A stretch of DNA of 64,000 nucleotides from an uncultured virus (IMG/VR IMGVR_UViG_3300034118_000426) (IMGVR_UViG_3300034118_000426), one strand, 5' to 3'. Numbered from the stretch's first letter, positions 10,735 to 60,768 are shown. Notes: a model not told the origin generated them from the sequence alone. Numbers and translations are program-made.

Positions 10735-13700
10735 AAAGCTTTGATTAGATATTTTAATCTAAAATATGGTTGTTGTATAGGAATTGGTTCATTATTCCTC
10801 ATATAAAAATTCAAATAATTATCAAACGTACTTCTTGATCTAGTACTCATTGTTATAGTTCCTGAGGGAAGAGTAATCCCAAGATTTTGAGCAGTGCCAG
10901 TAGTAATGTGATGATTAATTGATTCGCTCAAAAATTGGTTGGCAGATCCCCTCAAAACACCCCAATTTCCATTATGATCAGCACTATTTACACCACCAGT
11001 AGATGGGTTTGATCCTGTAGTGCCACCACCGCTGAATATAACAGTAATTGTTGCTGATCCCGTCGAACCATTATTGTTGGCCCCACCAGCTGCGCCACCA
11101 GAATAACCAGTTGATAGACCAGGAGCTGCCGAAAAGAAAGAAGAATTGTACGCAGAAGTTCCTCCACTTCCTCCTGGAGCATTAACATCGCCACCCGCAT
11201 TACCACCGCCAGATCCACCAGTAAATCCTCCACCACCGCCGCCGCCACCGCCACCATCAGCGTTGGCACCTCTATCAGCTCCTATTCTACCAGATACTGG
11301 ATTGGCTCCATTTGCATCATATGCTCTAAAAGTTAGTGTGGATTGATTTGTATAATATGATGATGAATTTATTGTTGAGGATGCCCAACTTGTTGAAGCA
11401 GCTCCACCAGGAAATCTTGGTCTAGTATTATTATTATGATATCCACTACCGCCACCACCGCCACCGCCTCCAACAATTACCAATATTGTTCCTCTTTGTA
11501 AACCATTTGGATTTGGTCCAGAACCCACAGTTTCACAATACATGAAAGCAGCGCCGCCGCCGCCACCACCACCACCCGAGCAACCTTGTCCACCAGATCT
11601 ACCACCAGATCCTCCACCAAATCCAGTACCTTGAGATCCACCACCATTTCCAGCACCAGCATTTGATACACATCCACTACCACCGCCACCAGCAAAAGGA
11701 ATTATCACTCTTATACTACTGCCTCCAGGTATATTTGTACAAGTGCCAGTAACTCTAGCTCCAGCTCCACCCGCAGAACCAGGATTCGCTGCGTCATTAC
11801 CACCACCTCCACCAGAAGCAGAATATAAAGTAAAAGTAAAACTATTTACTGTGGAAGGAACAGTAAAAACATAGTTGCCTGGACTTGTATAAGAGAATCC
11901 AGATTCCCCACCTGATGGAGGAGTTATCGTTTCTCCAGTTCCTTCACCAAGCGTGGAATCATTCGGATCGAATGATAGCGCATGACTGTGTGTTCTAGAA
12001 GGATTTCTGGTATTATTAATAATTCCCTCTGGTCCTTGACGTATAGTTCCAACAGCAGATATAGATTGATTAGCGCCACAATTCCCACTACCACCATAAA
12101 CTCTATTAGTATCAGAAAATACAATTGAATTAATTCTATGTGTATGTGGAGGAGGACCACTCAAAGATACTTGAGCAATACCAGCAGAATCAGATATCTG
12201 ATAAGTTGTAGTTCCTGTAAATTGAGCATCAACTTCCACTGTACAATTTTCCCACCCATCAGTTCTGAATGTCCCAACAGTAAACAGATATGGAGAAACT
12301 GTAGGAGCAGTACCATCTGTTTCGCCACTAATATTGGGACTTCCTGGAGGCAACTGATCATATTTTTCAAAATTATACTCTCCTCCCATAGACCCAGCAT
12401 TTCCTATCTGACCGCCAGAAGATCCATCTGGGGCATATAAAGGTACGACAGAAGGTGATGATCTATTATTATCTACATTTCCTGTTCCCAACAAATACTT
12501 GCCATATGGACATGGTAACCTAAAGACATCTGTACTTTGATAATTTGGATATTGTCTGGTTGATGGAATATTTCCACCGTAAGTATTTCCGAGAATTCTT
12601 GCTAAATCGGGAAAATCCTGTGCTTTTAATAATTGACCTCGCATTTCAATAAATCCAGGAAATCTATCATTTGGTCCATAAGGTCTTGTTGTGTTAGACA
12701 CACCTTGAGCTGGACTACCAGAAGACATTTGACCAGTTAACGCAATTTTCCACCTATCGGCATCATCTGTTATGGCAGATGGATCTTCAATATAATCAGC
12801 TGGTTTGGGCACACAAATAACAGTACCAATAGCAGCTCCAACCTTTTGACGTTGATCATTATATGATGGTGATTCTATAATAGCTGTTGTTACTACAATT
12901 CGTATAATTTCCGTATTAAAAGTATTAACTGGAGTAGGATATATTAAAGTTATTGGACTACTTCTATAATACTTTACTTTTTTAACTTGATTAAAAGTAA
13001 CAACACATCTAAAATAAGCGTTAGATAAAGAAGATGGAATATTATATAATGATATTTGTGAACTAGTTGCTCCGTTTATGTTAATATTATATAATGGTCC
13101 ATTAATACCATCCGATAAATTAAAATAAGTTCCAGTTGGACCAGTTATACTAGCCTGCCATCTATACGTTGCTGTATCTGTTCCTGTATAAAATGGCGAT
13201 ATATCTAGAATGAGAGTACTTCCCTGAGTAATATTTTTAGTTGCTGCGTCGGCAAAATAGTTAAATACTCTATCAACTCTAACTGTAGTTTCATTCGTGT
13301 AGTAAGTATTTGGATTACCAGATATAGTTAATCTACAACGATATACATTGCCACTATCAGATATAGAAAGAGATGGAATTCTATAATTTTCACCTACAGT
13401 GTTCGTTTGATTAAATCCCACAGGAGCGTCAGACCACGTAGAAGAACCAGCTGGTTTTAATTGCCATTGATATTGTATCGTTCCTGGAGTAGTACTAGAC
13501 GCAACCACAGATAATGTTGTTCCAGCAAAATCTTCTTCAATAGCAAGCGAAGATGGCGTATTTGTTGTAATGTTTATAGTTACTGGTAAAACTTGTAATC
13601 TAGCAACGTTACTAAAATTAATTGTAGATCCCGCACTAATCACACGACATCTATAGAACCCCGCATTGGCAGAGAGAACTGAAGATATTGTAAAAGTAGG

Positions 13701-17216: not shown

Positions 17217-18308
17217 CTAGAAAACCTTAATAATAAAAATCATGGATACAGAAGGGCATAAAGTGGTAGCATTTATAGTACCTGCATCTAGACCAGCAGA
17301 GTTATCTATTACTACATCACTTGAAACTATATCTGTGTAAGTGCTTGTTGACCTAACAGACAATCCACTTGTAAAAGTAATTGTATTTGATCCATGACTA
17401 TGACCACCTATAGACGCCCAAGTTCTAAATTCTGCGTTAATACTGGTGTGAAAATTCTTTTGTCCACCAACATGCGCTAACATATCACCCCCAGAAAATC
17501 CATTTCCAGCAAATTCATTGTTTGCGCTCGTATTACCACCACCTGGACGAGCATGATCTCCCGTCACATTATTTCTATACTCATCGGTTCTTTTCGCATT
17601 ATTCTCATTAGTTGTTTGTGCTTCACAAGGACGCCTCCAAAAATCTTCAAAATCATCTAAATTTGTAGATCCTTGTGTGTGTGAAATTTCTTGACCAGTT
17701 TGAATGGGTATAGTATGTGCGTGAATTGCGATATGACCATCTCCCAGTTTTCTAGGCATAATTTGATATCCTCTTTGTAGGATTCCAGGTGTTAAAGCAA
17801 GTCCGCTAACAGTTGCTGACAATCCAGGAATACTATTATTTCTAACTCCAACTAAATCAATCGTGGATGGTACTGGATTGCCAGTAGCAGATCCAGTATT
17901 TCCATTATCAGCATTTCCAATCTGTGCCCAATATGGATCATCAGATATCCCTCTCGTCGTAACAGGAGTCCACGCAGCAGTATTTAATCCCTCCATAGGA
18001 TTGTTATTTGTATTAGAATATGTAGAAGCAGTTGATTTTAAATAACCATAATGCCCCCTAAAAATATCAACTATCCCCTTACCAACAATATCAGGCAATC
18101 TAAATGTAGATCCCTCAGTACCACCATAAGTATTTCCAATACACTTAAACAATCTTGGATAAGCAGTAATGTTTAAATAGGATCCATTACACACTTTCCA
18201 CCCCACTGGTATAGTATCTTCTGTTCCAGACCAAGGAACAATAGTTCCCACTGGATAACCAGATAAACTCTTTAATTTATTATATTTTATTGCGTCTGCG
18301 TATGCCAT
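17217..18308 (-). CDS. tail collar-domain (short-fibre-like) protein
   Basis: PVGTIVPWSG...IPVGWKVCNGSYL..TAYPRLF..IGNTYGG....FRLPD, HAH/HSH, and C-terminal FIIKVF. Confidence 0.9.
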   Translation of the reverse strand: MAYADAIKYNKLKSLSGYPVGTIVPWSGTEDTIPVGWKVCNGSYLNITAYPRLFKCIGNTYGGTEGSTFRLPDIVGKGIVDIFRGHYGYLKSTASTYSNTNNNPMEGLNTAAWTPVTTRGISDDPYWAQIGNADNGNTGSATGNPVPSTIDLVGVRNNSIPGLSATVSGLALTPGILQRGYQIMPRKLGDGHIAIHAHTIPIQTGQEISHTQGSTNLDDFEDFWRRPCEAQTTNENNAKRTDEYRNNVTGDHARPGGGNTSANNEFAGNGFSGGDMLAHVGGQKNFHTSINAEFRTWASIGGHSHGSNTITFTSGLSVRSTSTYTDIVSSDVVIDNSAGLDAGTINATTLCPSVSMIFIIKVF

Positions 18309-18309
18309 A

Positions 18310-21300
18310 TCAAACCTCCACTATCCACCAACCTCTATTATCACTTGGTATCGTATTAACACCAGAAGAATCTGTATCTCCAACAAACATTAGACCAAAT
18401 CCAGCATTTGGAGTGTTAACTATTAACTCTCCGCCAGACCATCCACCAGTGCCACCTTGCGTTTTTTGAATATTTGTTCCGCCTTCAGATCTAATTTTTA
18501 GAGATACATTGTAATTCAAACTTCCCTGAATATCAATAAATCTAACCACATCTCCAGTTACACAATCAGAAGCCACAGGTAGATACAGAATTAGTTCGGA
18601 AGTAGGTCTGACCAAATATTGTGTATTTGGTTGTAGTCTTTGATTTGTAGCATTTAAATTTCCACTTTGGGCATCAATAGAAATAGTTCTTCTACCACCA
18701 TTTTTAGTATAGAAATTCTCTCTACCAAATGCTTGAATAGATCCATCCAATCTAATTCTAAATGGTTTATCATTATTAATACCGAGGTTTTCGACAGCAA
18801 ATACTGATGTAATTGCTGGAGCAGAAGTACTATATGTAGCATTAAGAGTTAATGTAGCGCCAGTTGCGGCAGATGATAATGGTTTACCAATTACTGTAGT
18901 ACCTAACTGTGCGTCTAAAGTTATGGTATTTGTTCCAGAAAGACCACTCTTAATAATAACATCATCTCCTGTAGTTAATGTTCCAGAAAGTCTCGTATTT
19001 CCAGAAGCACCTAATACTTCAAAGGCAATATCACTAGCGATATCCAACCTATTTTTGTCGAATACACCAGATGAGAAGAAAGAATCTTTAAATACCTGTA
19101 AATTTGCTCCATTATATAATCTGGTATTTCCAGTCGCACTTTCTACATATAATCTCGGAGCAGATCCATTAGTAATTACAAAATATTGTTTTGCTGGTAT
19201 AGTAGTGGAAGTATTTCCACTTAGTTCAATTGAATTATGTACTTTTAAATTACCACCACCCGATATAATATCAACACCGTTTAAACTAGAAGTGCTTGTA
19301 TCAGTTCCAATCGTGACATCGCCACGAGCAAATGTATCACCTGTTGTAGTAGTAACTTTAAAAGTTAATACCTTGCCAGCACCAATTCCTCCATTATTGA
19401 TTTCAAATGTTTGCGATTCATCTGGATTGATGCTAGAAATGGTTACAAATTCTTCATCCGCAGTATTTTTATCAATTCTTAATAAATCATTTATTTTAAA
19501 TGTTCCGCTAAATTCAGCAAGATTTATACTTGGTTGAACATCAGTAATACTAGATGGGAAAATATAAGTAGCATTTTCCGATTTATTTAATTTTACAACT
19601 TTAGATCCATCTGGGTGAGCAACAGCAGCTGTTCCATCTTGTCCTCTCAAAACTTCAACAGTATATGGATAAACAGAAGAAGGTAAGTTCGTTGTTCTAA
19701 CTATTTCCGTATTGATTAAGAAATATGTCCCAATTTCATTTATCCCAGATGGGTTGTTAATAGGTAGTGTTGTAAGAGTAGAACTGATTTCTGAAGCTCC
19801 ACCAGTGTCAATTAAAGTATCTTTTAATCTAAGTGTAGCATTACCAGGAGAAGTAGAACCAGATGCAAGATTAATAACAATGCCGCTACCACCACTTGTC
19901 GTTGAAAGAACTACTCCATTTAAATCGGCATTAACAACATAATATGTCGTAGTGGTGTTAACATTAGTAAAATTACCAGTATTTGTAAAGACTACCGAAT
20001 TACCCGACACGAGATAATTATTATTAATAACTAACTTAGTGGCTGGTGATGGATCTGTAACTGATAATACCGCAGTGATACTTTGAGATGAAGCAATATC
20101 TTCAACATATTCATAATAATCCACATTTAAATTAGAAGATGTTGCCCCATTGAATCCAGATAATTGTCCTTGATTATGGAACTTACCAAATCCTGTTCTA
20201 ATTACAGTACCAGTAGCAGAAGTTGAAGAAATCGTGCCACTTCCAGTAGTTGTATATGTAAATCTTGTTGTATTAACAACAGTAACATTAACAGTACCAA
20301 TGGTAGTGAACTGACTATTGCTACATACTATTCTAACAGGCATACCTGTAGTTAATCCATGTACCGCAGTAGTTGTTATTGTTGCGGTATTTCCAGTTCT
20401 AGAAACTTGAGAAATTTTAATAGTTCCTAATGTATTTCTAGTTGCTCCTACACTAGCATTTCTAAAACCACCATTTTGTTCAATATCACTTTCAAAAATT
20501 GTCTTGTTACTTACACGCAAACCATTCTTAATATAACTGATGCCAGCAGATCCACCAATTTCCACAATACCAGCAGTAGGACCAATCTTTAATGTAGTTA
20601 AATTCGATGGGAATAAAGTAAATTCTGTTGATGGAGTTGTAGCTAGAAGTTGTGTTCCCTTAATTTCAAGAGTTCCATCCAAAACAGTCTGATAATTTCT
20701 TACTCTAAAGATACTTTGAGAAGGATTGTTTATTGCTCCACCAAATGTAATGATTGAAGATGGGAAAGCATTTGGAGTTGCTGGGTTTGTAATCTGCGGA
20801 ACAACACCAATATTTACAATAGAGTTGTAACTATTGTTATGAACATTAAATGTGCCAGTAGCAGCAACACCAGTACCAATATTAACTGTCTGAGAGCTAG
20901 TTGTGGTATTGAATAGATTTGCTGTGGTGGCATTAGCACCAGCAGAGAACGTTAGAGCATTTGCTTCATTTGCGATATTAAATACTGCGTTTGTCGTGGT
21001 AATATCGCCACCATTAACTTCAATATCTGACTGGAATCTAAAGTCTCCAGTAATTCTACCATTTCCAGCGACAACCAGAGTTCTATCAAGATCTGCGTTG
21101 TTTACATTAATACCAACTCTACCGTTATTATTGGTAGAAATTCTTAGAGTAGCGGCAGCGGTGAGTGGGTTAGCACTATCGCCACCCACAACGAGTGCGT
21201 CATCTCTATTTGTTTGCGTCTTAGTTGTTCCAGTTTCAGTGAGATAAGAAAGAATCTTCTTGCCACTAATAAATGCTGTACCGACAACATCAAGGTTTGC

Positions 21301-24300
21301 TCTTGGTGTTGTTTCAGCAGAAACAAATGCTGTCTCATAGGCGCTATGAGCAGAACGTGCTACAGTGTTAATACCTAATTTATAATCACCAATTGTTTCC
21401 GTTTCTGTTCTAATCGCCTCAGACCCAAGAACACCAAACTCTTTAAATGCTGCTTTCGATTTCTCGATTACAATATTTGGTTGTGCTACCGCATCAACTG
21501 GGTATCCATTATTTGGAAGAGGAATAGCAGTGTAAAGTGGTAAGTTAGCATTAACAATAATATTAACAAAGTTATTGGTAGGAACAAATGGAATGCCAAC
21601 AGTACTATAAACAGGCCATACACCGTTGAGAGGAGCAAGAGCACCCGTAGCACCAGTAATACGAATTTGCGAAGAAGAAGAAATTTGTAACGCTGCGTTA
21701 GTAATGCCAACATTCCACGTCAATCTAACAATAGTACCAGAAGCTGCGCCCTGAATACCAATTATCTGAGCGTTAAATCCACCACCAGAACGATTCTCAA
21801 TACGAATGTAATCATTCGCATAGATCCATCCAAGAGATCCAGTGAATAAAGTTTGATTACCTTTTAATTGAATCAAACCTGATGCTAGAGGGAACTTAGT
21901 ACCAAAATCAGTATTTTGTAACTGCGAAGGACCGTTCGTAGTTAATCCAAATGTATTAGCAAGATCTGGCGTTCTATTAGATAGAGCCGTCATGATCTGA
22001 TAATCTTGTAATCCTCTTGGATTTAAATCAACAACTGTTGTTTGTAGTCTTCCTTGATGTAGGATGATATCGCCAGTTTTTTGTTGTGCGATATTTACTT
22101 CGAGGTATGGATCATAACCAACTACAGTTCCTTCTCCCGTTACAATCTTAAGTGATGGGAAATTCTCGACAGATCCAAATGCTGTAGTGTTATTGATTAC
22201 GATAGGAGCATTGAAGAAACTTTCTGCTCTGCCTTCAGAACCATTGACTGTAATAATTTCGTTAAATGTCACCGCAGTATCAAACGTGGTAACAAGACCA
22301 CCAATTACATCAGCTTCATCTGAAGATTCAACAAGTTTAGCAGACTCTAGGAATGTCTCTTCACCAGTAATAGCGTTGATCTTTCTGTTACCGATGTAAA
22401 GGTCACCGTTTGAGTTTAAACCAGTGTAGAAGACGATACCAGCGTCTTGCTTCTTCGCTTGAGCGTAGAAGTCCTGAACATCAGTAAGAATGATTTCCTG
22501 TCTTGCTGGGAAACCAGTTGAGTAGTTACCAGGACCGAATCCTAGATATTCAAATGTATGGTTACCAGAACGAGCGATGGATGGTCTGCGAAGTTCTACA
22601 TAAAGTTTTCCTTCTGTTGGATACTGAGAAGTTCCATTGATAGGAATTCTTCTACCTTCAGATCCAGCAGAAGCTGTACCAGACTGTGCCTGGATGGTAG
22701 ATGTACCGTTAAATGTGTATCCACCAGTTCCTGGATCTTGAACAAAATCAAGAACCATCTCTTTGGTCAAGCTATTCTTAGCATCGTTTACAGTTACCAG
22801 ACCATGAATGTAGTTGTCTGCGGTAGATACTGTTGGAGGTGGATCTGAAAGAGTTGTAGTTGTTAAATCTACACCCTTATACCATTCTGGATCATTCTTA
22901 TAGAACTCTGGATACAACTTAGAGATTGGTTGTGAGAACTTAAAGTTTCTGAAGTTTTCGCCAACACCCGAACCAGTTGGATATGGAGAAATATTACCTC
23001 TTACACAAGTCAAGTAATATACACCATCTTGCTGACCAGGAATTCTTCTACGAATGGTATTAATATCAAAAATGTAGAAAGTATTCTCCATATCAGAAAC
23101 ATCTTCCACACTAGCAATCGTGTAGGAAACACCATTGTCGTCATTTATTCTATCACCAGGAGTTAGTGTATAGACATTGGCACCTTCAACAACATATGGA
23201 TACTTGGTTATATCTGATCTACCATCATTTGGTTCACTAATGAGTGAAGCAGTTACTGAACCTTGTGTAAATATAGTGGGGGTGGTACTACTGTAATCAA
23301 GCACCGAGTTTCCTGTCAAATCTTTCAGGATCATGTAATAGTTATTTTCATACGCAAAATAACCATGTACATATCCACTACCAGAACAGTTGCCAGACCA
23401 AGATATTAAGTTAGTGCTGTTTGAATTAGGAATGCTTGAGACAAAGACACCATTACCACCTTCTGGTGAAGTAATTTTTACTGTAGTAAAAAGTTTTGTT
23501 TTGTAGGCTTCAGCATCAATTCCAATATCAAAAGCAGTTAATTGTAAATAATTTTTATTATTTACAGAAACTTTTCTTGCTGATTGAACCGTAAAAGCAA
23601 CTTTTGAAGTTGTCTCAAGTCTCTTCGGATTGCCAAAGGCAGATGGATCATATGTAGATACAAAATTTGGATTCAGTACAAGTTGCTCAGCAGTTGTGAG
23701 TCCAAGTCTTTCTCCCGATACTGGAGCGAGCAACGTTGCTGTATCTGCTCCTGTTGATGTTGGTTTAAGAAGAATTCTTTGTGGTAATAGTCTTCTCTTT
23801 TCATCTGTACGAATCTTAAATACGAATCCTCTGATTGGATCACGAACTGTCTTGAGATTCTTAGGAATAACATAACGAAGACGATATACTCTATCTTCCT
23901 TGGTTCTGTTATCCTCAATTCTTTCAAAGTATGAATCAGTGGTTCTCAATCTACCAGCATAATCCGACTGCTTCATTCTAGGAATGATCGTGTTGCCAGC
24001 AGATAGAGTTTCTAGATACCAACATCCATCAGTAGCAGCAGCACCAATCTTAGGATCATATCTCAGAGGAGATCTACGCTTATTAGAGAACGTATAGAAT
24101 ACCGCAGTGCTTCCTGGTTGGAAAGAAATAGGAGCAATGTTATCACGAGCGTTCGCAAATGTTTCGTGAATGGTAAATCTTCTAGCATTTACATAACGAA
24201 CGAAGTAAAGATTTTTGCCAGAAATAGTGGTTCCGCCAAACTGAGATGATAGTGTTGGTAGTGAAGATCCAGTAATATCAGACCCAACGCGGAAAAATAC

Positions 24301-27300
24301 TAACTGTGGTTCTACGTTTGTTGATGGTCTGTCAAAAGCATGTGGTCTATCAGTTTCAAGAATTGTGCTTGATCCAGAAGCAATCTTAGTCTGATATTGA
24401 TGTAAATCATAGTTAATGTCAAGAACATATTGATATACATCAATTTCTACGTTGGCATCAATACCATCTGTTTCAGACGAGTAGATGTAGATACCAGCAG
24501 CTGCGTTTTCTTCACTAGTTGCTAGTAATAGATTCTGTTGATTAGATCCGTTGAACGAACCAATCGTAGAATAATTAAATGGATCTGTAATTCTTCCAGG
24601 AGCAATAACATAATATACAGTATTTGTATCAAATCCTTTTGGCAGACGAATCAATCGTTTGTCTACATTAATACCAGATCTTGCTCTAGGTACAAGTCTG
24701 ACAGGAGTTCCTGTTTCTAACTGGTGTGGGTTGGAAGTAGGTAATCCATTGCTATCAGACTCTGTTAGAGTAAACAGCGTGGCTCTTTGTGCCAAAGCAC
24801 CTGTATTAATAGATGAGGCAACTCTAGGTACAGTCCCGATCCCACTATTAAGAATAGTAGATAGAATCTGATAGAAGTTAACAATCGTGCTTGCTGTAGA
24901 AGCACACTCGCCACCTGGAGCTCCAGTTGCTGGATCCCCAGCAGTCAAATAATTATAATCTTGTATTACACTAGAGTCGGTGGATGGTGTTAGTGTATTT
25001 GTCCAAACCCCTCGTGTAAATTCAACATAAAGATTAACATTTGTCGCCGTAGCAGTAGCATTTACTGTAGAACCAAAATCTAACTTACTACCTTGGGTTC
25101 CGAGTTGAATTTGGTTTGATGCTAATCCATTAACACCATCGCCAATCTTTTTAATATATGCGGTTGATGGAATTGTTGTTGTATATGCTATTGTGCTGCT
25201 AGAAGAAGTTGGAATCGCATTAACACTACGAACTCTCATACCAACAACAAGACCAACAGTGCTATTCACCGTAACGATTGGCGATCCAAATGTCGTGCTT
25301 GCGTTTGGAAGATATGTATTGTGATTTCTCATCGAAGAAATCGCCAAATCTCTCACATAACGATAAGCATCTAGAGTTTCTAGTTTTTCATTCTCAATGT
25401 AATCAAGTTGATTTCCAGTGTAATATGCTTCTGCTGCGTTAATTGTATTAACGTTTCCGCCCAATCTTAGGTCAGAAGTGATAGCTTCTACAATGTATCC
25501 AATGTCACGCTTACACTTGCTTGATTCACTTACCTGTGACCAAGGACCAGGATTTCTAACAGGAAGATTATTCAAATTACCAGCAAGAATAGTGCTAGTG
25601 ATGATATTTGTTAGAGTATCAATCGTCTGTCTTACGTTAGCACAATCCCAATCTCCATTATCTACAGCAGGAAGACCAGAAATACTACCCGCATTAACAA
25701 CGCTAGTAACAATTGAGAATAGAGAATCTACTGCTGATTGTACATCTGTACAAGTAGCACCGTTACCAGAGGCATTGTAGGAAACATTGCCACCAGAACC
25801 ACCAGCAGTTGCTGGACCAGTTGATAAAGCAAGATTCTTTGTATAAAGTTGATTGGTAAGAGCTCTCTTACACCAATCTCTTGCCTTATTAAAAGCAACA
25901 ACAGATTCTGCCGATTCGCCAACTAATCCATTGGAAATTGGTGTACCTGCTTGCGTGAAATACTCTCTTACAGCACCAACAGTGAACTCGTTTCCACCCC
26001 AGAAGAGGTCTTGTGCGATAGAGTCAACGATGTAACCAATATCACGCTTACACTTAGTTTCTCCAGCTGGAATAACAGTAGAAACTTGTTCAGGAGCAAG
26101 ATTTGTAATGTTTCCTGCGCTTAAATTAGAAGTAACAATAAAAGTAAGACTGTCAATTGCTAATCTTACGTCAGCACACGAATTAGGACTTGTGTTTGGG
26201 ATGTTACCACCAGTTCCGCTATAGTTTGCTGGTCCAGAAGTAATGGTAGCATCTTTGATTGTTAATTGATTGGTCAGCGCATCTTTCATCAAATTACGAG
26301 CTTTTACAAAAGCAACGTTTGACTGATCAATTTCCCCCGCCAGTCCATTTGGAAGTAGTGTGGTGGCATTGGTAAAATATTGTTGGAGGAATTTGCGTGT
26401 ATATACGTTGCCAGCACCCTGAGAAATATCTAGAGAAACAGCATCAATAAAGAATTCAATATCACGCTTACACTTATCTGGATCTGGATTTGTAAAACTA
26501 GGATACTGAATGGCAATTTCTGCGTATGCTCCATCCACAATCTCTTGCTTATTTTGTTGAATTAAACGATAAGCATCTTTGTAACGAGAGATTGATGTTG
26601 TTTGAGGATCTCCAGGATAGTAAAAATCTGGGAATTGAACAGCAATTTCAGCAGCTGCTCTATCAATAATTTCCTGTCTGTTGGCAGTAATTAATTTGCT
26701 ACCATCCTTAAATCTACCAACATTTGCGTCATCATTTACTGGATCAATCGTAATTGTTGAGACGTAAATAGCACCAGTGGCATTTGTTACTCCAGGAGCT
26801 GTTGGTACGGTATATCTAAACTGAGTGCTTGTTAATCCAGCAGAAAGAACCTGAAATTTTCCATTAAATGCTGTTTGTGTAGCACCACCAACAGTTACAA
26901 ATTGGTTTGGTTGTAGATTATGTGGTGTGAGAGTTGTTACAGTAATAGTTGTACCAGAAGCAGAAAGTGTTGGAGTATTAAGAAGTGATGTATTTGTTAA
27001 TAAGTTTGAAATTGCTTTCTTTGACCAATCTTTGGCTCTGTTAAAAGCAAATACCGATTGAGTTTCTTCACCAGCGAGACCATTTGTAAGTGGTTGACCA
27101 GAAGAATTGAAATACGCTCTAGTAGCGTCAATCATATTGGAGTTGCCACCAGTGTACAAATCATTGGCAATGGCATCTACAATATAACCAATATCTCTCT
27201 TACACTTTTCGTTGGCATTTCCTCCCCCAGGAACAGTAAATGCTGGGAAAGCAGTTTGCATTTGTGAAAACGCATAATCAATAATTTCTTGGCGGTTTGC

Positions 27301-29562
27301 CTTGATTAGATTACTTGCGTCTCTAAAACGACCAGTTTCTGCAGTAATATTTGGATTTACATAAGGAATATTCTGAAGATTTGGGTATTTCTCTAAAATA
27401 TATCCAAATGCTTCAGATTGAATAAATGTCTTGTTAGCATCAATTAAATTGGCAGCATCTTGTCTGAGATTATACTCAGTAGTAAATCCAACACCCGTAG
27501 GATTTAAGGTTGATAGAGATGCTGTCCACTTCTTAAATCCAGAATGAATCAAATCTGCTGATTTAGCACCAGAAGCATCTAATTTTACAAAGATTTTTTC
27601 GTTTCTCTTAGCACCAAGTCTATAACCGTCAATAGAAGCTGCTGGGCGATCTTCTGGATTGCGAGCATCTTCTGCGCCCAAATAAAGTCTCGTTGAGTTT
27701 GGATTTAGCGAAGTGCCTCTTACTAGAGGTACATCAAATGTATAATATTGCTTTCTAATTGTCTTTAATGTAGACAGTGATTTTGGTGGGATAATATCCG
27801 TAACATATCCACCTTTATCTTGGTTGAAAGCAAATCCTTTGTAACCAATAGCATGGAGTGAGGTATTACCAAAGTTCGAGTTTGAGTTGGTGATAGACAT
27901 ATCACCACCAGACTCCATTAGGAAGTGATCAGCAAAACCTACAGCGAAGATCGAAACGCACTGAATGAAGGAGTCATCAGATGCCTTAACGTGGAAGTTT
28001 CTCCAATCGTCTTTCCAGTATGCGTCACCCTTGATGTGATAAGGAGTTGTAGCAAACGCATCAGTTAGAGGTGCCTGATTCCATGTGTTGCTGAACTCAT
28101 CGTAGCGAATAAACGCACGATCGTCTTTCTGTAGAGAAACACCAGTGTACTGAGCGATAACCATGGATTTGAAACCAGTGGCTTTCTTACCATCTGCCCA
28201 GATACCACAAATACCCCAAGTCGAACGAATCGAAACGTTGAAGACGTATGGTGATGCTGATTCTACGCTATCCACCTCCGCCTGTACGGTAGCATTGGTG
28301 TCAAGAGCAGGGGATGAAGCAGCAGTGTAAGTTGTGCCACTAACAAGACCCAATCCAGTGGCGGTCGCTGGTACTCTATAAGTAAATACTTTGGGGTCTG
28401 TTGGACTGATGCTGAATACCTGAAATACTCCATTTAGAGTATCATTTAAACCATTATTAGTAATAGCAACATATTGACCAGGAAAAAATCCATGATTAAT
28501 TTTCGTGCGTACCGTTAATGTAGCAACACCAGCAGGAGAAGAATCATCAATTCTTACCTCATCAAGACGAATAGCATCCTGTAGAGGACCAACAATTCTA
28601 TTTTCTTGTACTCTAAAATCAAATTCTCTATTACGAATAACCATCAACGTCCATTTATTTGGATTTGTTGATGGAACTGAATTTGTTGAAGATGAGGAAG
28701 CTTGATATGCTTGACCATTATAAAGAACTTTATCCCCAGCAGTATAAGTAGTGGTGGAAGACCAATATTCTGTTACAGGAAGAGTTTGACCCTCTACATA
28801 TACATCATCAATAGGTGGTTGGAAATCGCTGAATACGTGAGAAATCTTTCTGTAAAGAAGACCAAGATCCTGTCTATCAGCAAAAACAAAGTTTGTAATC
28901 TTGTGGTGTGAAAACTCAGGAACGAGTTTAGTTACAGTGTCGTTTGGTTGAGTGTAAACTTTACCAATACCAGCAGTGGCATCGTAAAGAGGAGAATTAG
29001 AAGAAAGATCTCCATCCTGAATAGTGAACTGCCAGAAATAACAACCACCAGTTACATTAAATAAGGCACAACGAGGAACATCTTTGTCCGCAGGATCAGG
29101 AACATAAAGTGGACGTAGTTGAGTTCTACGCAAATCCATACCTACAAGAGATGTACCTCTAGGAATTGTAGCACCACCATCACGTCCATTAAATTTATAA
29201 AGAATGTTATTTGGATCGCTTAGATTAAAACTTACATTGCTGTTTGTTTCCCACTCGCCAAGTGCTTGATTATACTGAAAAACAGGTAGATCTGCTACGT
29301 TTTCTATGCCTGGGCGGTTGTCAATGTGGTGTACACCAGGAGACAACATGATCGTAAATTGATCGAAACGATCATTGTCAATTCCTGGGAGATACGAGAA
29401 TCTTGCTACTTCAAGAAAAGCTCTCTGAATGCTTACGAATGGTCTTGTTGGTGAATTTCCTCTGTTGTCTAACGCATCTGTAGCATTAAAGTCGTCAGGA
29501 GAAACATAAAGATACTTACCAGTCTTACTTGAAAGTAGATTATCTAATCTCGTTAATGGCAT
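18310..29562 (-). CDS. giant tail fibre/virion protein (3750 aa): beta-helix-like N-terminus, CBM5/12-like insert, four nested phycobiliprotein-like domains, beta-barrel repeats and a fibre-type C-terminus
   Basis: N-terminus YLYVSPDD...RGNSPTRPFVSIQRA is typical of cyanophage fibres. Four KCKRD repeats. HG...G..V beta-barrel repeats. Late promoter upstream. Confidence 0.85.
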   Translation of the reverse strand: MPLTRLDNLLSSKTGKYLYVSPDDFNATDALDNRGNSPTRPFVSIQRAFLEVARFSYLPGIDNDRFDQFTIMLSPGVHHIDNRPGIENVADLPVFQYNQALGEWETNSNVSFNLSDPNNILYKFNGRDGGATIPRGTSLVGMDLRRTQLRPLYVPDPADKDVPRCALFNVTGGCYFWQFTIQDGDLSSNSPLYDATAGIGKVYTQPNDTVTKLVPEFSHHKITNFVFADRQDLGLLYRKISHVFSDFQPPIDDVYVEGQTLPVTEYWSSTTTYTAGDKVLYNGQAYQASSSSTNSVPSTNPNKWTLMVIRNREFDFRVQENRIVGPLQDAIRLDEVRIDDSSPAGVATLTVRTKINHGFFPGQYVAITNNGLNDTLNGVFQVFSISPTDPKVFTYRVPATATGLGLVSGTTYTAASSPALDTNATVQAEVDSVESASPYVFNVSIRSTWGICGIWADGKKATGFKSMVIAQYTGVSLQKDDRAFIRYDEFSNTWNQAPLTDAFATTPYHIKGDAYWKDDWRNFHVKASDDSFIQCVSIFAVGFADHFLMESGGDMSITNSNSNFGNTSLHAIGYKGFAFNQDKGGYVTDIIPPKSLSTLKTIRKQYYTFDVPLVRGTSLNPNSTRLYLGAEDARNPEDRPAASIDGYRLGAKRNEKIFVKLDASGAKSADLIHSGFKKWTASLSTLNPTGVGFTTEYNLRQDAANLIDANKTFIQSEAFGYILEKYPNLQNIPYVNPNITAETGRFRDASNLIKANRQEIIDYAFSQMQTAFPAFTVPGGGNANEKCKRDIGYIVDAIANDLYTGGNSNMIDATRAYFNSSGQPLTNGLAGEETQSVFAFNRAKDWSKKAISNLLTNTSLLNTPTLSASGTTITVTTLTPHNLQPNQFVTVGGATQTAFNGKFQVLSAGLTSTQFRYTVPTAPGVTNATGAIYVSTITIDPVNDDANVGRFKDGSKLITANRQEIIDRAAAEIAVQFPDFYYPGDPQTTSISRYKDAYRLIQQNKQEIVDGAYAEIAIQYPSFTNPDPDKCKRDIEFFIDAVSLDISQGAGNVYTRKFLQQYFTNATTLLPNGLAGEIDQSNVAFVKARNLMKDALTNQLTIKDATITSGPANYSGTGGNIPNTSPNSCADVRLAIDSLTFIVTSNLSAGNITNLAPEQVSTVIPAGETKCKRDIGYIVDSIAQDLFWGGNEFTVGAVREYFTQAGTPISNGLVGESAESVVAFNKARDWCKRALTNQLYTKNLALSTGPATAGGSGGNVSYNASGNGATCTDVQSAVDSLFSIVTSVVNAGSISGLPAVDNGDWDCANVRQTIDTLTNIITSTILAGNLNNLPVRNPGPWSQVSESSKCKRDIGYIVEAITSDLRLGGNVNTINAAEAYYTGNQLDYIENEKLETLDAYRYVRDLAISSMRNHNTYLPNASTTFGSPIVTVNSTVGLVVGMRVRSVNAIPTSSSSTIAYTTTIPSTAYIKKIGDGVNGLASNQIQLGTQGSKLDFGSTVNATATATNVNLYVEFTRGVWTNTLTPSTDSSVIQDYNYLTAGDPATGAPGGECASTASTIVNFYQILSTILNSGIGTVPRVASSINTGALAQRATLFTLTESDSNGLPTSNPHQLETGTPVRLVPRARSGINVDKRLIRLPKGFDTNTVYYVIAPGRITDPFNYSTIGSFNGSNQQNLLLATSEENAAAGIYIYSSETDGIDANVEIDVYQYVLDINYDLHQYQTKIASGSSTILETDRPHAFDRPSTNVEPQLVFFRVGSDITGSSLPTLSSQFGGTTISGKNLYFVRYVNARRFTIHETFANARDNIAPISFQPGSTAVFYTFSNKRRSPLRYDPKIGAAATDGCWYLETLSAGNTIIPRMKQSDYAGRLRTTDSYFERIEDNRTKEDRVYRLRYVIPKNLKTVRDPIRGFVFKIRTDEKRRLLPQRILLKPTSTGADTATLLAPVSGERLGLTTAEQLVLNPNFVSTYDPSAFGNPKRLETTSKVAFTVQSARKVSVNNKNYLQLTAFDIGIDAEAYKTKLFTTVKITSPEGGNGVFVSSIPNSNSTNLISWSGNCSGSGYVHGYFAYENNYYMILKDLTGNSVLDYSSTTPTIFTQGSVTASLISEPNDGRSDITKYPYVVEGANVYTLTPGDRINDDNGVSYTIASVEDVSDMENTFYIFDINTIRRRIPGQQDGVYYLTCVRGNISPYPTGSGVGENFRNFKFSQPISKLYPEFYKNDPEWYKGVDLTTTTLSDPPPTVSTADNYIHGLVTVNDAKNSLTKEMVLDFVQDPGTGGYTFNGTSTIQAQSGTASAGSEGRRIPINGTSQYPTEGKLYVELRRPSIARSGNHTFEYLGFGPGNYSTGFPARQEIILTDVQDFYAQAKKQDAGIVFYTGLNSNGDLYIGNRKINAITGEETFLESAKLVESSDEADVIGGLVTTFDTAVTFNEIITVNGSEGRAESFFNAPIVINNTTAFGSVENFPSLKIVTGEGTVVGYDPYLEVNIAQQKTGDIILHQGRLQTTVVDLNPRGLQDYQIMTALSNRTPDLANTFGLTTNGPSQLQNTDFGTKFPLASGLIQLKGNQTLFTGSLGWIYANDYIRIENRSGGGFNAQIIGIQGAASGTIVRLTWNVGITNAALQISSSSQIRITGATGALAPLNGVWPVYSTVGIPFVPTNNFVNIIVNANLPLYTAIPLPNNGYPVDAVAQPNIVIEKSKAAFKEFGVLGSEAIRTETETIGDYKLGINTVARSAHSAYETAFVSAETTPRANLDVVGTAFISGKKILSYLTETGTTKTQTNRDDALVVGGDSANPLTAAATLRISTNNNGRVGINVNNADLDRTLVVAGNGRITGDFRFQSDIEVNGGDITTTNAVFNIANEANALTFSAGANATTANLFNTTTSSQTVNIGTGVAATGTFNVHNNSYNSIVNIGVVPQITNPATPNAFPSSIITFGGAINNPSQSIFRVRNYQTVLDGTLEIKGTQLLATTPSTEFTLFPSNLTTLKIGPTAGIVEIGGSAGISYIKNGLRVSNKTIFESDIEQNGGFRNASVGATRNTLGTIKISQVSRTGNTATITTTAVHGLTTGMPVRIVCSNSQFTTIGTVNVTVVNTTRFTYTTTGSGTISSTSATGTVIRTGFGKFHNQGQLSGFNGATSSNLNVDYYEYVEDIASSQSITAVLSVTDPSPATKLVINNNYLVSGNSVVFTNTGNFTNVNTTTTYYVVNADLNGVVLSTTSGGSGIVINLASGSTSPGNATLRLKDTLIDTGGASEISSTLTTLPINNPSGINEIGTYFLINTEIVRTTNLPSSVYPYTVEVLRGQDGTAAVAHPDGSKVVKLNKSENATYIFPSSITDVQPSINLAEFSGTFKINDLLRIDKNTADEEFVTISSINPDESQTFEINNGGIGAGKVLTFKVTTTTGDTFARGDVTIGTDTSTSSLNGVDIISGGGNLKVHNSIELSGNTSTTIPAKQYFVITNGSAPRLYVESATGNTRLYNGANLQVFKDSFFSSGVFDKNRLDIASDIAFEVLGASGNTRLSGTLTTGDDVIIKSGLSGTNTITLDAQLGTTVIGKPLSSAATGATLTLNATYSTSAPAITSVFAVENLGINNDKPFRIRLDGSIQAFGRENFYTKNGGRRTISIDAQSGNLNATNQRLQPNTQYLVRPTSELILYLPVASDCVTGDVVRFIDIQGSLNYNVSLKIRSEGGTNIQKTQGGTGGWSGGELIVNTPNAGFGLMFVGDTDSSGVNTIPSDNRGWWIVEV
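24840..27475 (-). repeat. four nested phycobiliprotein-like protein repeats inside the giant fibre
   Basis: Four D-[AG]-x-x-L-I-x-x-N segments, four KCKRD segments and four C-x-x-x-x-x-[AT]-[IV] helices. Confidence 0.8.
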
Positions 29563-29635: not shown

Positions 29636-29660
29636 GTGATTTGACTTCCTTCACACGGAG

Positions 29661-29734
29661 AGCCCCAAGTCGGACTTGAACCAACGACCTACGGTTTACA
29701 AAACCGTTGCTCTATCCAGCTGAGCTATTAGGGC
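29661..29734 (-). tRNA. tRNA-Thr(UGU)
   Basis: GCCCTAA-TAGCTCAGCTGGATAGAGC, anticodon arm ACGGT-TTTGTAA-ACCGT, GGTTCAAGTCC. CCA is not encoded. Confidence 0.95.
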
Positions 29735-30197
29735 ATTTGACGAACTGGAAATTCCCATTAAAGGAACCCCAAACATGTTCGTCGGTATTTATATCGTATC
29801 CCTTGTCAATTACGTGATAGTAACCGTTTCCGAGAATACTTTGTGTTTGTAGATAGGTTTCTTTTCCCGACCAGGAGACAAGACATTCTTTACAGAGATT
29901 TTTGCCGTGAAATTCATCACCTATCAACTCAAATAGTATATCACATCCAGAGAGATATGTCAAGTCGTTTTCTTCTTTGTAATTTTTCACAAGAAGTGTT
30001 GACTCTTGAGGAATGACCTCAATAACTGATTTACGATACGCTCGTTTATCAACATAATATTGTTGAGTACAGCGAAACTGGTTTTTACCAATTTTTTCGT
30101 GAATCATCTCAATCATAGCAAACTTTGTAGGATGAGACATTGCTTGCATACAATTATTAAAATTACCCTCAAAGTATTCACAAAATTTGTCAATCAT
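29712..30197 (-). CDS. cpeT: CpcT/CpeT-family (T-type) phycobiliprotein lyase
   Basis: F.G.F.N..QA...P..F, YR, GCDI.F, F.G....C.V, DKGYD......VWGS..G.F.F.K family pattern. Confidence 0.9.
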   Translation of the reverse strand: MIDKFCEYFEGNFNNCMQAMSHPTKFAMIEMIHEKIGKNQFRCTQQYYVDKRAYRKSVIEVIPQESTLLVKNYKEENDLTYLSGCDILFELIGDEFHGKNLCKECLVSWSGKETYLQTQSILGNGYYHVIDKGYDINTDEHVWGSFNGNFQFVKCPNSSAG

Positions 30198-30456
30198 CTT
30201 TAGGCAATAATTCTGGATTTTCTACTTCTATGTCAAACATCAATGGATGCATTTCTTCCATTATTAAATAATTGGAATAAACATACAAATCTTCATCATC
30301 ATAATCACGATGAGAAAGAGCTTCTGTTTGAACTGATGGATGGTCTTGTATAAGTTGAGGAAGTTCGTCAAACGTATAAGGAAGACCTTGAATGAAATAC
30401 ATACGAACAACCTCACCCATATAAAAACAATATGCTTGAGAAAGTGTGTATTTCAT
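30190..30456 (-). CDS. hypothetical phage protein (MKYTLSQAYCFY...MYFIQGLPYTFDEL)
   Basis: Start moved to 30456 because the longer ORF runs through tRNA-Leu. It overlaps the cpeT start. Confidence 0.8.
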   Translation of the reverse strand: MKYTLSQAYCFYMGEVVRMYFIQGLPYTFDELPQLIQDHPSVQTEALSHRDYDDEDLYVYSNYLIMEEMHPLMFDIEVENPELLPKDD

Positions 30457-30475
30457 TACTTTTCCCACTACACTG

Positions 30476-30482
30476 TATTTAG
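30476..30482 (-). promoter_or_regulatory. late promoter CTAAATA upstream of the hypothetical-cpeT pair
   Basis: tatttag on the plus strand, between tRNA-Leu and the ATG at 30456. Confidence 0.6.
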
Positions 30483-30489
30483 TGAGAAA

Positions 30490-30573
30490 TAGGGACGGGG
30501 GGACTTGAACCCCCACGGGATTGCTCCCAACAGATTTTAAGTCTGGTGTGTCTACCACTTCCACCACATCCCC
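30490..30573 (-). tRNA. tRNA-Leu(UAA)
   Basis: GGGGATG...CAGA-CTTAAAA-TCTG, long variable arm GGGA-GCAA-TCCC, GGTTCAAGTCC. Confidence 0.95.
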
Positions 30574-30586
30574 GTGGTATGACAGT

Positions 30587-30615
30587 ATTATAGCAGGTGC
30601 TCTAGGGACTGTCAA
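30587..30615 (-). promoter_or_regulatory. consensus sigma70 promoter for tRNA-Leu, hypothetical, cpeT and tRNA-Thr
   Basis: Perfect TTGACA-17 nt-TATAAT, with an extended TG. Confidence 0.9.
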
Positions 30616-58649: not shown

Positions 58650-60767
58650 ATGGCAAATAGATACCCATTAATTGCCAACGCTGTTACAAGACAATTAGAA
58701 GAAGTTAAAACAGGTGATAGTTTAAATCTCGCACAAACTGGAATTTTTGATGGAACCAGTACAGGATTGGCTGGTTATGTTCTAACTTCAACTGGTTCAA
58801 CTGTATCATGGCAGGCACCATTATCAACGGAACAAGTCCAAGATATTATTGGTGACATGGTTTCTGTAAACACAGAAACTAATATATCAGTAACTTATGA
58901 TGACGCAAATGGAAAACTAAATTTTTCTGTTCCAACAGCAACAACAACAATCGCTGGAGCAGTAAAACCAGATGGTTCAACGCTAAGTATAGCACCTGAT
59001 GGAACTCTCACCGTAATTGGTGGTGGCGGAAGTAATGTAACAAACTTAGATAGTCTAACTGATGTTCAAATCGGTGGTGTAATCACTGGTCAAACTCTAC
59101 GTTACAATGGCACACAGTTTGTAAACGCAAGCTTATCGTATAATGATTTATCAAACAGACCAGCACTTGCTACAGTAGCGACATCTAGTTCTTACAATGA
59201 CCTGACATTCAAACCTTTCATTCCATCTCTCATCAATGATCTCGCTGATGTGGATGGCACACCTTCAGTTGGTCAAGTTCTAAAATGGAATGGTACTGTA
59301 TGGGCACCAGCAGCTGATTTAACTGGTGGTGGAGGTGGTGGTGGTATCACACTAACAGACCTTTCGGTAACTACAAACGCAGCGGTTGGTGGTGGTTCAT
59401 TGTCATATGATAATAATAATGGCACATTCACGTTCACCCCACCAAATCTTTCTGTTTATTTGACAAGTGAAACAAATGCTGATTGGAATGCTACAACTGG
59501 TGTTGCTCAAATTTTAAACAAACCCACACTATCTGCTGTAGCAACATCTGGTTCATACAATGATCTCTCAAATACACCAACAATTCCAGCAGCACAAGTT
59601 CCATCTGATTGGTCAGCAACGACAGGTGTTACACGCATCTTAAATAAACCAACTCTTGCTACTGTAGCAACATCTGGTTCATACAATGATTTAACGAATA
59701 GACCAAGTTTAGCAACCGTAGCAACCAGCGGTGAATACGCTGATTTGGCAAACAGACCAAGCCTAGCATCCGTTGCTATCTCAGCATCATACAATGACCT
59801 TGTAGATCAACCAGTTATCCCAGCAGCACAAGTTCCTTCTGATTGGAATGCTAATACTGGTGTGTCGAGAATCTTAAACAGACCATCACTATCAACCGTT
59901 GCCACAACAGGAGATTATTTTGATTTAGCAAATCGCCCAACACTATCCACTGTATCAGCAACTGGTTCATATAACGACTTATTGAATAGACCAACACTAT
60001 CAACTGTTGCTATCACTGGTTCTTATAATGATCTGACAAATAGACCAACATTAGTTACTGCCCTCAGTGCTCTAACAGATGTAACAATAACATCACCAAT
60101 ATCTAATCAAACCATTCGTTACAATGGAATTCGCTGGGTAAACGTCACCGATAACTTTATTGGAAGAGATGGAGTATCTGTATCAACTGCAACTGCTTCT
60201 GGTGGCGGCAGTTTATCATACAACAGTACAAATGGTGTATTTACCTTTACACCACCCAACTTAAGTAGTTATCTGACTGGTATTGGTTCATTATCAATTG
60301 ACGCTCTGAGTGATGTACAAATTGGCACACCACAAGTTGGACAAACACTAAAATGGAATGGAACTAACTGGTCTCCAGCTGATTCTGCTGGCGGAAGATC
60401 AACAGTATTTGCCAGCACTTCTTCAATAGTAAACGGAGCATCTGAAAACATTACAATTGTCGGATTTAAGTCTTATGCTTTACTGAAGATTCAAACTTCA
60501 GAAGCAGCATGGGTAACATTATATTCCGATACTGGCAGTAGATTATCCGATGCTTCACGTTCAGAAAATACAGATCCAGCACCAGGAGCAGGTGTAATCG
60601 CTGAAGTTATTCACACGGCAGCTCAAACAACAATCATAACTCCTGGCACAATTGGGTGGAATAATGACACAATACCATCCACGAATATCTACGCTAAAGT
60701 TGTCAATAAAAGTGGTTCAACCACAGCAATTACAGTAACGTTAACAGTTCTACAATTAGAAACCTAA
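58650..60767 (+). CDS. repeat-rich tail fibre/virion structural protein
   Basis: LATVATSGSYNDLxNRP repeats, L.DV...GQ.L.WNG repeats, and late promoters. Confidence 0.8.
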   Translation: MANRYPLIANAVTRQLEEVKTGDSLNLAQTGIFDGTSTGLAGYVLTSTGSTVSWQAPLSTEQVQDIIGDMVSVNTETNISVTYDDANGKLNFSVPTATTTIAGAVKPDGSTLSIAPDGTLTVIGGGGSNVTNLDSLTDVQIGGVITGQTLRYNGTQFVNASLSYNDLSNRPALATVATSSSYNDLTFKPFIPSLINDLADVDGTPSVGQVLKWNGTVWAPAADLTGGGGGGGITLTDLSVTTNAAVGGGSLSYDNNNGTFTFTPPNLSVYLTSETNADWNATTGVAQILNKPTLSAVATSGSYNDLSNTPTIPAAQVPSDWSATTGVTRILNKPTLATVATSGSYNDLTNRPSLATVATSGEYADLANRPSLASVAISASYNDLVDQPVIPAAQVPSDWNANTGVSRILNRPSLSTVATTGDYFDLANRPTLSTVSATGSYNDLLNRPTLSTVAITGSYNDLTNRPTLVTALSALTDVTITSPISNQTIRYNGIRWVNVTDNFIGRDGVSVSTATASGGGSLSYNSTNGVFTFTPPNLSSYLTGIGSLSIDALSDVQIGTPQVGQTLKWNGTNWSPADSAGGRSTVFASTSSIVNGASENITIVGFKSYALLKIQTSEAAWVTLYSDTGSRLSDASRSENTDPAPGAGVIAEVIHTAAQTTIITPGTIGWNNDTIPSTNIYAKVVNKSGSTTAITVTLTVLQLET
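59130..60050 (+). repeat. 18-aa (54-bp) degenerate repeat array, about 8 copies, with three DW.A.TGV..ILN.P units
   Basis: Visible in the translation and in the DNA (gcaacatctggttcatacaatgat occurs twice). Confidence 0.85.
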
Positions 60768-60768
60768 T

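Follow-up and report, generated by a model that had tools for sequence, protein, structure and literature searches.

Nested phycobiliprotein-fold domains predicted in a giant T4-like cyanophage protein of the tail-fibre type

Introduction

How is a polypeptide chain to be read when the pieces of four similar domains do not follow one another domain by domain? The question is raised by a giant gene of an uncultured virus (IMG/VR IMGVR_UViG_3300034118_000426), of which a stretch of 64,000 nucleotides (the window) was analysed. The window belongs to a linear virus record (123,152 bases, ~65% complete by estimate) whose baseplate, tail tube, gp32, psbA and phoH genes mark a T4-like cyanophage. A preliminary description of the sequence proposed that three types of segment, named A, E and H, make up four globin-like domains, each inserted in a loop of the previous one. 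Domain insertion and out-and-back chains are already known. In flagellin and in the hook protein FlgE the N- and C-terminal pieces meet as outer domains and the inner domains are inserted in loops. The phage nest would share with them an out-and-back chain with inserted domains. Their nested folds are mostly different and their depth is fixed, whereas in the phage proteins one fold would be inserted in itself, at two loops, to a depth of 3 to 10 and with branching.

The fibre gene and its neighbourhood

The nest is held by a giant tail-fibre-type protein of 3750 aa (P0001; 18310..29562, minus strand), defined as an ORF and by its match to PHROG 4527, "short tail fiber protein", which extends across all four parts of the protein. 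Matches to PHROG 529 flank the nest on both sides and none lies inside it. PHROG 4527 includes the cyanomyovirus "short tail fiber" of S-PM2 (YP_195253; T4-like cluster 734), which has the same scaffold and the same gene order, cpeT, tRNA-Thr, fibre and collar-domain genes; its annotation names no globin domains. The S-PM2 protein differs in that its D1 (the outer domain, see below) is un-nested and a two-level nest is found near the N-terminus instead.

The gene cpeT, coding a homologue of T-type bilin lyases (29712..30197, minus strand; Pfam PF06206, E 1.8e-23), is found 150 bases upstream of the fibre gene. A tRNA-Thr(TGT) (29660-29734, minus strand) lies between the two genes and overlaps the 3′ end of cpeT; S-PM2 has a tRNA-Thr(TGT) in the same place (13136-13209 of NC_006820.1). 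The latter record also lists 16 tRNAs within the fibre CDS (17218-22045), where ARAGORN finds none, and this annotation is probably misplaced. Further upstream, a 141-aa ORF (30190-30615, minus strand) overlaps a tRNA-Leu (30490-30573), its true start being probably a later ATG. Beside psbA, the opposite strand carries two large genes (58650-63039, plus strand), the second of which codes a subtilase-family protease (PF00082, E 2.2e-22). A ferredoxin-dependent bilin reductase was not found in the record, which at 65% completeness gives no proof of absence.

Order of the segments

Profiles of the A, E and H segments, seeded on the four copies and then iterated on 121 proteins, read the protein as AAEAAEHEHHEH between aa 699 and 1575 (window 27468-24838). 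No match to the 121 reversed proteins was obtained at the thresholds used. The D..LI..N motif starts at aa 702, 748, 953 and 996, KCKRD at aa 786, 1030, 1170 and 1349, and the Cys that opens the last helix is found at aa 1129, 1271, 1307 and 1553. Motifs and profiles therefore agree with the order A A E A A E H E H H E H, four of each, given in the preliminary description, and gaps of 94 and 135 aa are found at the two places assigned there to beta inserts. The E motif proposed at the same time, KCKRD...AF..A, holds in its first half for the four copies and in its second half for three, the fourth reading AY..V. On the phycobiliprotein globin fold segment A covers helices A-B, segment E helices E-G and segment H helix H, and the A/E boundary falls in the B-E loop in a profile alignment to phycocyanin alpha.

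The features are described here in the order of the chain, all on the minus strand, with the pairing that the models below predict. A1 (27379..27468, aa 699-728; motif and profile) carries helices A-B of the outer domain D1, with Asp702; in S-PM2-type relatives it runs into an E1-like segment. D2, placed within the B-E loop of D1, begins by A2 (27244..27336, aa 743-773; profile and model superposition), which has helices A-B and Asp748, and continues by E2 (27001..27216, aa 783-854; motif, profile and superposition), with helices E-G and C787-x-R-D. The G-H loop of D2 then takes beta-barrel 1 (26749..26991, aa 858-938; model match to 4hiz) and, after it, D3, whose helices A-B and Asp953 lie in A3 (26626..26718, aa 949-979; fragment model and profile). 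D4 (26107..26589, aa 992-1152; superposition on phycocyanin beta), in the B-E loop of D3, bears Asp996, C1031-x-R-D and Cys1129. It is the sole contiguous domain, as had been claimed for the innermost one, and is missing as a block in P0068 and P0072. On the way back the chain passes E3 (25846..26064, aa 1167-1239; motif, fragment model and profile), with helices E-G of D3 and C1171-x-R-D, then H3 (25684..25764, aa 1267-1293; fragment model and profile) and H2 (25573..25653, aa 1304-1330; superposition and profile), the helices H of D3 and D2 with Cys1271 and Cys1307. D1 is resumed by E1 (25321..25527, aa 1346-1414; motif, S-PM2-type relatives and profile), with helices E-G and C1350-x-R-D. 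Beta insert 2 (25009..25320, about aa 1415-1518; middling model match to 8eci) occupies the G-H loop of D1, which ends by H1 (24838..24915, aa 1550-1575; superposition and profile), its helix H with Cys1553.

The sequence by itself gives the order, the balance, the motifs and the natural un-nested forms of the domains. The frequency of valid nests among random orders was rejected as a test of nesting: four A, four E and four H can be ordered in 34,650 ways, 55 of which (0.16%) are valid nests, the plain tandem order being one of them, so that the figure shows balance and not nesting.

Predicted structures

The AlphaFold model of aa 690-1585 (896 aa), made with an alignment of 49 sequences (about 26 effective), has a pLDDT of 85.4 and a pTM of 0.66. 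All models are single-chain, and the pairing was read from order-preserving superpositions, each range giving the first and last residue only. D4 (model 301-459) superposes on residues 33-172 of phycocyanin beta with an rmsd of 1.9 Å over 131 residues (Z 16.5). D2 (model 53-638, that is aa 742-1327, A2 to H2) superposes on 4xxi, the bilin domain of ApcE (Z 14.7, rmsd 2.1 Å over 117), as well as on many phycobiliprotein beta chains. The D3 range is absent among the 100 matches listed for the whole 896-aa model and D3 was therefore folded with D4 alone. This fragment (aa 942-1300; pLDDT 87.5, pTM 0.88) gives D3 (fragment 6-350, that is aa 947-1291, A3 to H3) on 4xxi (Z 14.1, rmsd 1.9 Å over 117) and on phycoerythrin beta (Z 15.8), and the D4 range (46-207) is likewise recovered in it. 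D1 (model 4-891, A1 to H1) is found on the globin 1x3k (Z 7.8, rmsd 4.0 Å over 142) and, as model 7-888, on a second haemoglobin (Z 6.7, rmsd 3.8 Å), matches that are weak alone. D4 and the adjacent A2-E2 pair use up E4 and E2, leaving E3 and E1 for D3 and D1. Foldseek, run on PDB with the whole model, found nothing at E 0.001 and listed phycobiliproteins only far down, a result explained by its linear alignment.

The models thus reassemble the four domains according to the parse that had been proposed, A1[A2 E2[beta A3[A4 E4 H4]E3 H3]H2]E1[beta]H1, and the A1 to H1 (with its weak score), A2 to H2 and A3 to H3 reassemblies for which AlphaFold had been suggested as a check all appear in them. 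On these predictions we regard as nearly certain that the protein has four phycobiliprotein-fold domains nested D2 in D1, D3 in D2 and D4 in D3. Two loops take inserts, the B-E loop (D2 in D1, D4 in D3) and the G-H loop (barrel and D3 in D2, barrel in D1). As D3 exits D2 by the G-H loop, beside the barrel, and the B-E loop serves for D2 and D4, the arm is likely bent or branched rather than straight.

Both beta inserts are predicted to be small beta-barrels. The first (model 169-249), which has no Pfam match, resembles the barrel of phi92 endosialidase 4hiz (Z 9.5, rmsd 2.2 Å over 77) and the second (model 719-829) a chain of phage Bridgette 8eci (Z 7.1, rmsd 1.9 Å over 71), the latter with a middling score. 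The BFVD model of a S-CAM1 tail protein matches the D3+D4 model with a TM of 0.85 (rmsd 1.9 Å over 358 columns). BFVD models from uncultured Caudovirales phages also match it (E 1e-5 to 6e-3), although their labels (collagen repeat, lectin) are unrelated, and the fold may reach beyond cultured cyanophages.

Pairing of the segments tested from sequence

Nested pairing predicts that A segments which resemble each other will have E partners that do so too. It shows such congruence in all 22 parsed proteins with at least seven domains (r 0.54-0.89, p <=0.022) and in-order pairing in one of the same 22, which form about four families and are not 22 independent tests. When the outermost and the contiguous domains are left out of five depth-10 proteins, nested pairing keeps r values of 0.49-0.73 (p 0.002-0.045) and in-order r is negative. 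Nested and in-order pairing are not told apart in P0039 and in trimmed P0089. Congruence of A with H is weaker (p 0.004-0.38). Mean mutual information over 438 split domains is 0.251 for nested pairing, 0.203 for in-order pairing and 0.164-0.173 in eight random pairings.

Depth of the nest and un-nested forms among relatives

A comparison of nesting depth among homologues was made with 121 proteins, the query and the best 120 of 664 matches, picked by likeness to the query. Balanced nests were found in 71 of them at strict thresholds and in 96 when H was accepted at 2 bits and a short second E match right after an E was discarded, a relaxed parse that still gave no false tokens. The depth of these 96 nests varies from 3 to 10: it is 3 (n=3), 4 (n=25), 5 (n=18), 6 (n=30) or 10 (n=20). 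None of the parsed proteins has a purely tandem order. In the 25 proteins that were not parsed the segment counts are off by 1 (21 proteins) or by 2 (4 proteins). The 669 parsed domains carry inserts in the B-E loop only (320), in the G-H loop only (72), in both (121) or in neither (156).

The closest relatives follow the word AAE-beta-(A)n(EH)n-H-E-H, with n from 1 to 4. P0068 and P0072 lack aa 985-1165, a block of 181 aa that is exactly D4, and P0087 has one gap of 43 and another of 140. Conversely, the extra level is accounted for by one insertion of 41-55 aa and one of 132-169 aa in all seven five-domain proteins aligned. Where n is 1 the inner A has no clear likeness to A3, being nearer to A2 or A4, and such proteins support its position and not its orthology. 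The outer domain is also found un-nested: in the six S-PM2-type loci an A1-like segment (similarity 0.45-0.75 to A1, next best <=0.32) is followed 9-10 aa on by an E1-like one, that is D1 without its insert. S-PM2 has a D3+D4-like block elsewhere, near aa 100-450, with 57% identity, and nests therefore move within the gene.

Other scaffolds carry the domain too. The proteins of the P0009-P0031 family (about 2920 aa) are mostly nest, with ten A in a row and twelve domains arranged to a depth of 10 plus one side branch, and five members have a ~400-aa insert inside one domain. The domain is also found in larger tail/baseplate proteins, namely the frame of more than 6900 aa of L040/L041, with a seven-deep nest in L040, and the 8573-aa frame of P-RSM6. 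By tblastn D4 is found in 231 phage records and CpeT in 325. A scan for the domain pattern in one genome per prokaryote species found no locus, and a search for short stand-alone homologues yielded 23 proteins among which no cellular phycobiliprotein is named.

Detection by linear profiles

The expectation that nesting hides the domains from linear HMM searches holds for single split domains and fails for the protein as a whole, which scores 47 bits against Pfam PF00502 (Phycobilisome; curated cut-off 22.2). Among the split halves A1, E1-H1 and E3-H3 give no match to PF00502 and A3 one of E 0.049, while their un-nested counterparts are recognized (D1 in 3 of 3 cases at E 1.4e-4 to 2.7e-3, the D3 position at E 1.8e-6). 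Single pieces reach 26.5 bits (A-E of D2) and 21.4 bits (D4). D4 alone has no match at E 1 in a phmmer search of PDB sequences, and a profile is therefore needed: one built from 37 contiguous domains places A and E on residues 39-103 of phycocyanin alpha (best E 0.002). In hhalign the A-E part reaches 93% with alpha subunits and 7.7% with beta subunits, and the alignment stops short of helix H with either.

Bilin-type sites and the cpeT neighbour

The domains resemble the beta subunits of phycobiliproteins (CpcB, CpeB and cryptophyte beta chains; PF00502) by a globin fold from helix A to helix H (Z 15.7-17.4, rmsd about 2 Å), by CxRD on helix E, found in the four domains here, and by equivalents of Asp39 and Cys153, both present in each of the four. 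The ends of the superposition put Asp996 on beta-39 and Cys1129 on beta-153, if the terminal helices are ungapped, and the hhalign register for the Asp39 equivalent agrees, with low probability. Asp39 and Cys153 are invariant in the four beta subunits compared. Among the 669 parsed domains CxRD is found in 640 and C-x-D-D in the other 29; the latter, in which the Arg is lost and Cys and Asp are kept, is seen in a divergent side domain at depth 4 of P0064 and the P0086-P0121 group. Conservation is 0.98 for the Asp of A (880 segments), 1.00 for Cys and Asp of E (916), 0.94 for the Arg of CxRD and 1.00 for the Cys of H (822). The Cys values compare with an overall Cys content of 0.64% and include the bias of profiles seeded on Cys motifs. 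Asp39 holds the beta-153 bilin. It is carried by helix A and the Cys by helix H, up to 850 aa apart, so that the second site needs the split halves to be rejoined.

The phage domains also differ from beta subunits. The N-terminal helices X/Y are absent, the low-rmsd superpositions starting at subunit residue 28-33 and longer ones borrowing a helix of the enclosing domain; the B-E loop, which in phycocyanin lies beside the first bilin site, either has only 5-9 aa left or gives way to an entire domain; three of the four copies are discontinuous, within a 3750-aa tail protein, and identity is 12-20%. In sequence their A-E part is nearer to alpha than to beta subunits. The domain is thus like a beta-type phycobiliprotein globin in fold and residues and, lacking helices X/Y, is not a light-harvesting subunit. 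The accessible text of work on BBAGs and photoglobins (PMC10151467) gives CXRD as a bilin motif, as in BBAG-1 and BBAG-3, and does not mention phage globins alongside them. These proteins and the ApcE bilin domain (4xxi, Z 14.1-14.7) have in common with the phage domains a bilin-type globin within or apart from larger assemblies; they are cellular, contiguous single domains, whereas the phage domains are split and keep the second, beta-153-type Cys.

T-type lyases such as CpcT serve Cys153 of beta subunits, according to the accessible text of PMC10452541. Of 23 loci that have this scaffold and a flank of 1 kb or more, 18 carry cpeT <=1.5 kb upstream, a count that includes three loci identical to the window and two of S-PM2; the gene is not in the flanks of the other five, nor of any of 52 loci with other scaffolds. 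In nine related, hand-picked phage genomes the domain is present in the six that have cpeT and in none of the three that lack it. Gasper et al. in 2017 reportedly found no transfer by a phage CpeT to a host subunit. P-SSM2 and S-SSM7 have pebS and ho1 without the domain, which cannot thus explain all phage bilin genes. From gene adjacency and co-occurrence the cpeT product is a candidate partner enzyme of the nested domains. Binding of bilin pigment by the latter is somewhat favoured.

Virion location and light

For the 3750-aa protein itself the pointers to the virion are its gene context and PHROG label. Another domain-bearing protein, ORF112 of S-SCSM2R, was found in the proteome of CsCl-purified virions and judged unlikely to be structural by its authors, according to the accessible text (PMC12801897). 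The virus particle may carry pigment. Phage P-HM1 needs light to adsorb; P-SSM2 also adsorbs in the dark, to a lesser extent than in light (accessible text of PMC6628666). The first has the domain and cpeT, the second neither. This difference is consistent with a light-sensing role, in a comparison of two phages only and with light still helping P-SSM2. We put forward only tentatively the full scheme, in which recursive self-insertion would give cyanomyoviruses bilin-loaded arms, CpeT would load the beta-153-type site formed at closure of the nest and the pigment would be a light sensor gating attachment to the host. Light gating of attachment by the arm pigment is, taken as such, unlikely.

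An out-and-back arm and its alternatives

The explanation that we prefer, by a modest degree of confidence, is that the four nested phycobiliprotein-fold domains form an out-and-back arm, likely bilin-carrying and partly loaded probably by phage CpeT. The chain would lay the first pieces of each domain outward and complete the domains on its way back. Such a course gives two linkers at every junction and lets the depth change without breaking the scaffold; one-step changes might arise if nests of unequal depth recombined through their similar flanking pieces, A and E-H. The second bilin-type site (Cys of helix H and Asp39 of helix A) would arise only once the distant halves rejoin, bilin would be attached in part by the CpeT encoded next door, and the arm would be displayed on the virion.

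A real nest of purely structural use, in which the captured globin fold is a stackable, length-adjustable spacer placing beta-barrels or fibre, with cysteines for disulphides or packing and no pigment, has a minor though appreciable probability. The free variation of depth, the move of the D3+D4-like block in S-PM2 and the remodelled loop of the first site are in its favour, as is the fact that disulphides can form on virion proteins outside the cell. It leaves unexplained, however, the link to cpeT and the conservation (0.94-1.00) of the Asp and Arg of CxRD and of the Asp39 equivalent, and the two cysteines are far apart in beta subunits. The domains could also be pigment-free mimics of host phycobiliproteins which bind the host surface or antenna, or soak up bilins or degradation adaptors before assembly. 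Such a role would fit the closeness of the predicted structures to beta subunits (Z up to 17.4), and cyanophages do act on host antennae, for example by a viral NblA (accessible text of PMC12695635); the missing X/Y helices of the alpha-beta interface and the poor vehicle that giant tail proteins make for an intracellular decoy argue against it, and we consider mimicry improbable.

Much less credible still is that the segments rebuild globins otherwise than by a nest within the chain, either by pairing in order or by exchange among the chains of a fibre trimer. Many phage fibres are trimeric, the models have one chain only, in-order pairing fits equally in P0039 and trimmed P0089, and the sequence tests cannot tell chain swapping with the same partners from a within-chain nest. 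However, the single-chain models satisfy all twelve segments by short linkers and with high confidence, A1-E1 and the D3 position are found contiguous in natural deletion forms, and in-order pairing has the negative r noted above in the five depth-10 proteins. Helical repeats in a purely local tandem, without long-range reassembly, the outcome by which the preliminary description would have fallen, are refuted at the level of prediction by order-preserving superpositions that span 340-890 residues at 1.9-4.0 Å, found no support, the Foldseek result being put down to linear alignment, and deserve practically no credence.

No description of phage phycobiliprotein-fold domains, of their nesting or of repeated self-insertion to variable depth was found in the literature that was accessible to the search. 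The nested architecture has good support and is unusual: one fold is predicted to be inserted in itself repeatedly at two loops, its matched pieces lying hundreds to more than 2000 residues apart and the depth varying from 3 to 10 between relatives, providing a natural repeat protein that obeys bracket rules rather than tandem order. Such an architecture defeats per-domain linear annotation. It also hints at how arms of adjustable length could be built, and a tail protein with intact bilin-type sites beside cpeT offers a concrete candidate together with a simple assay.
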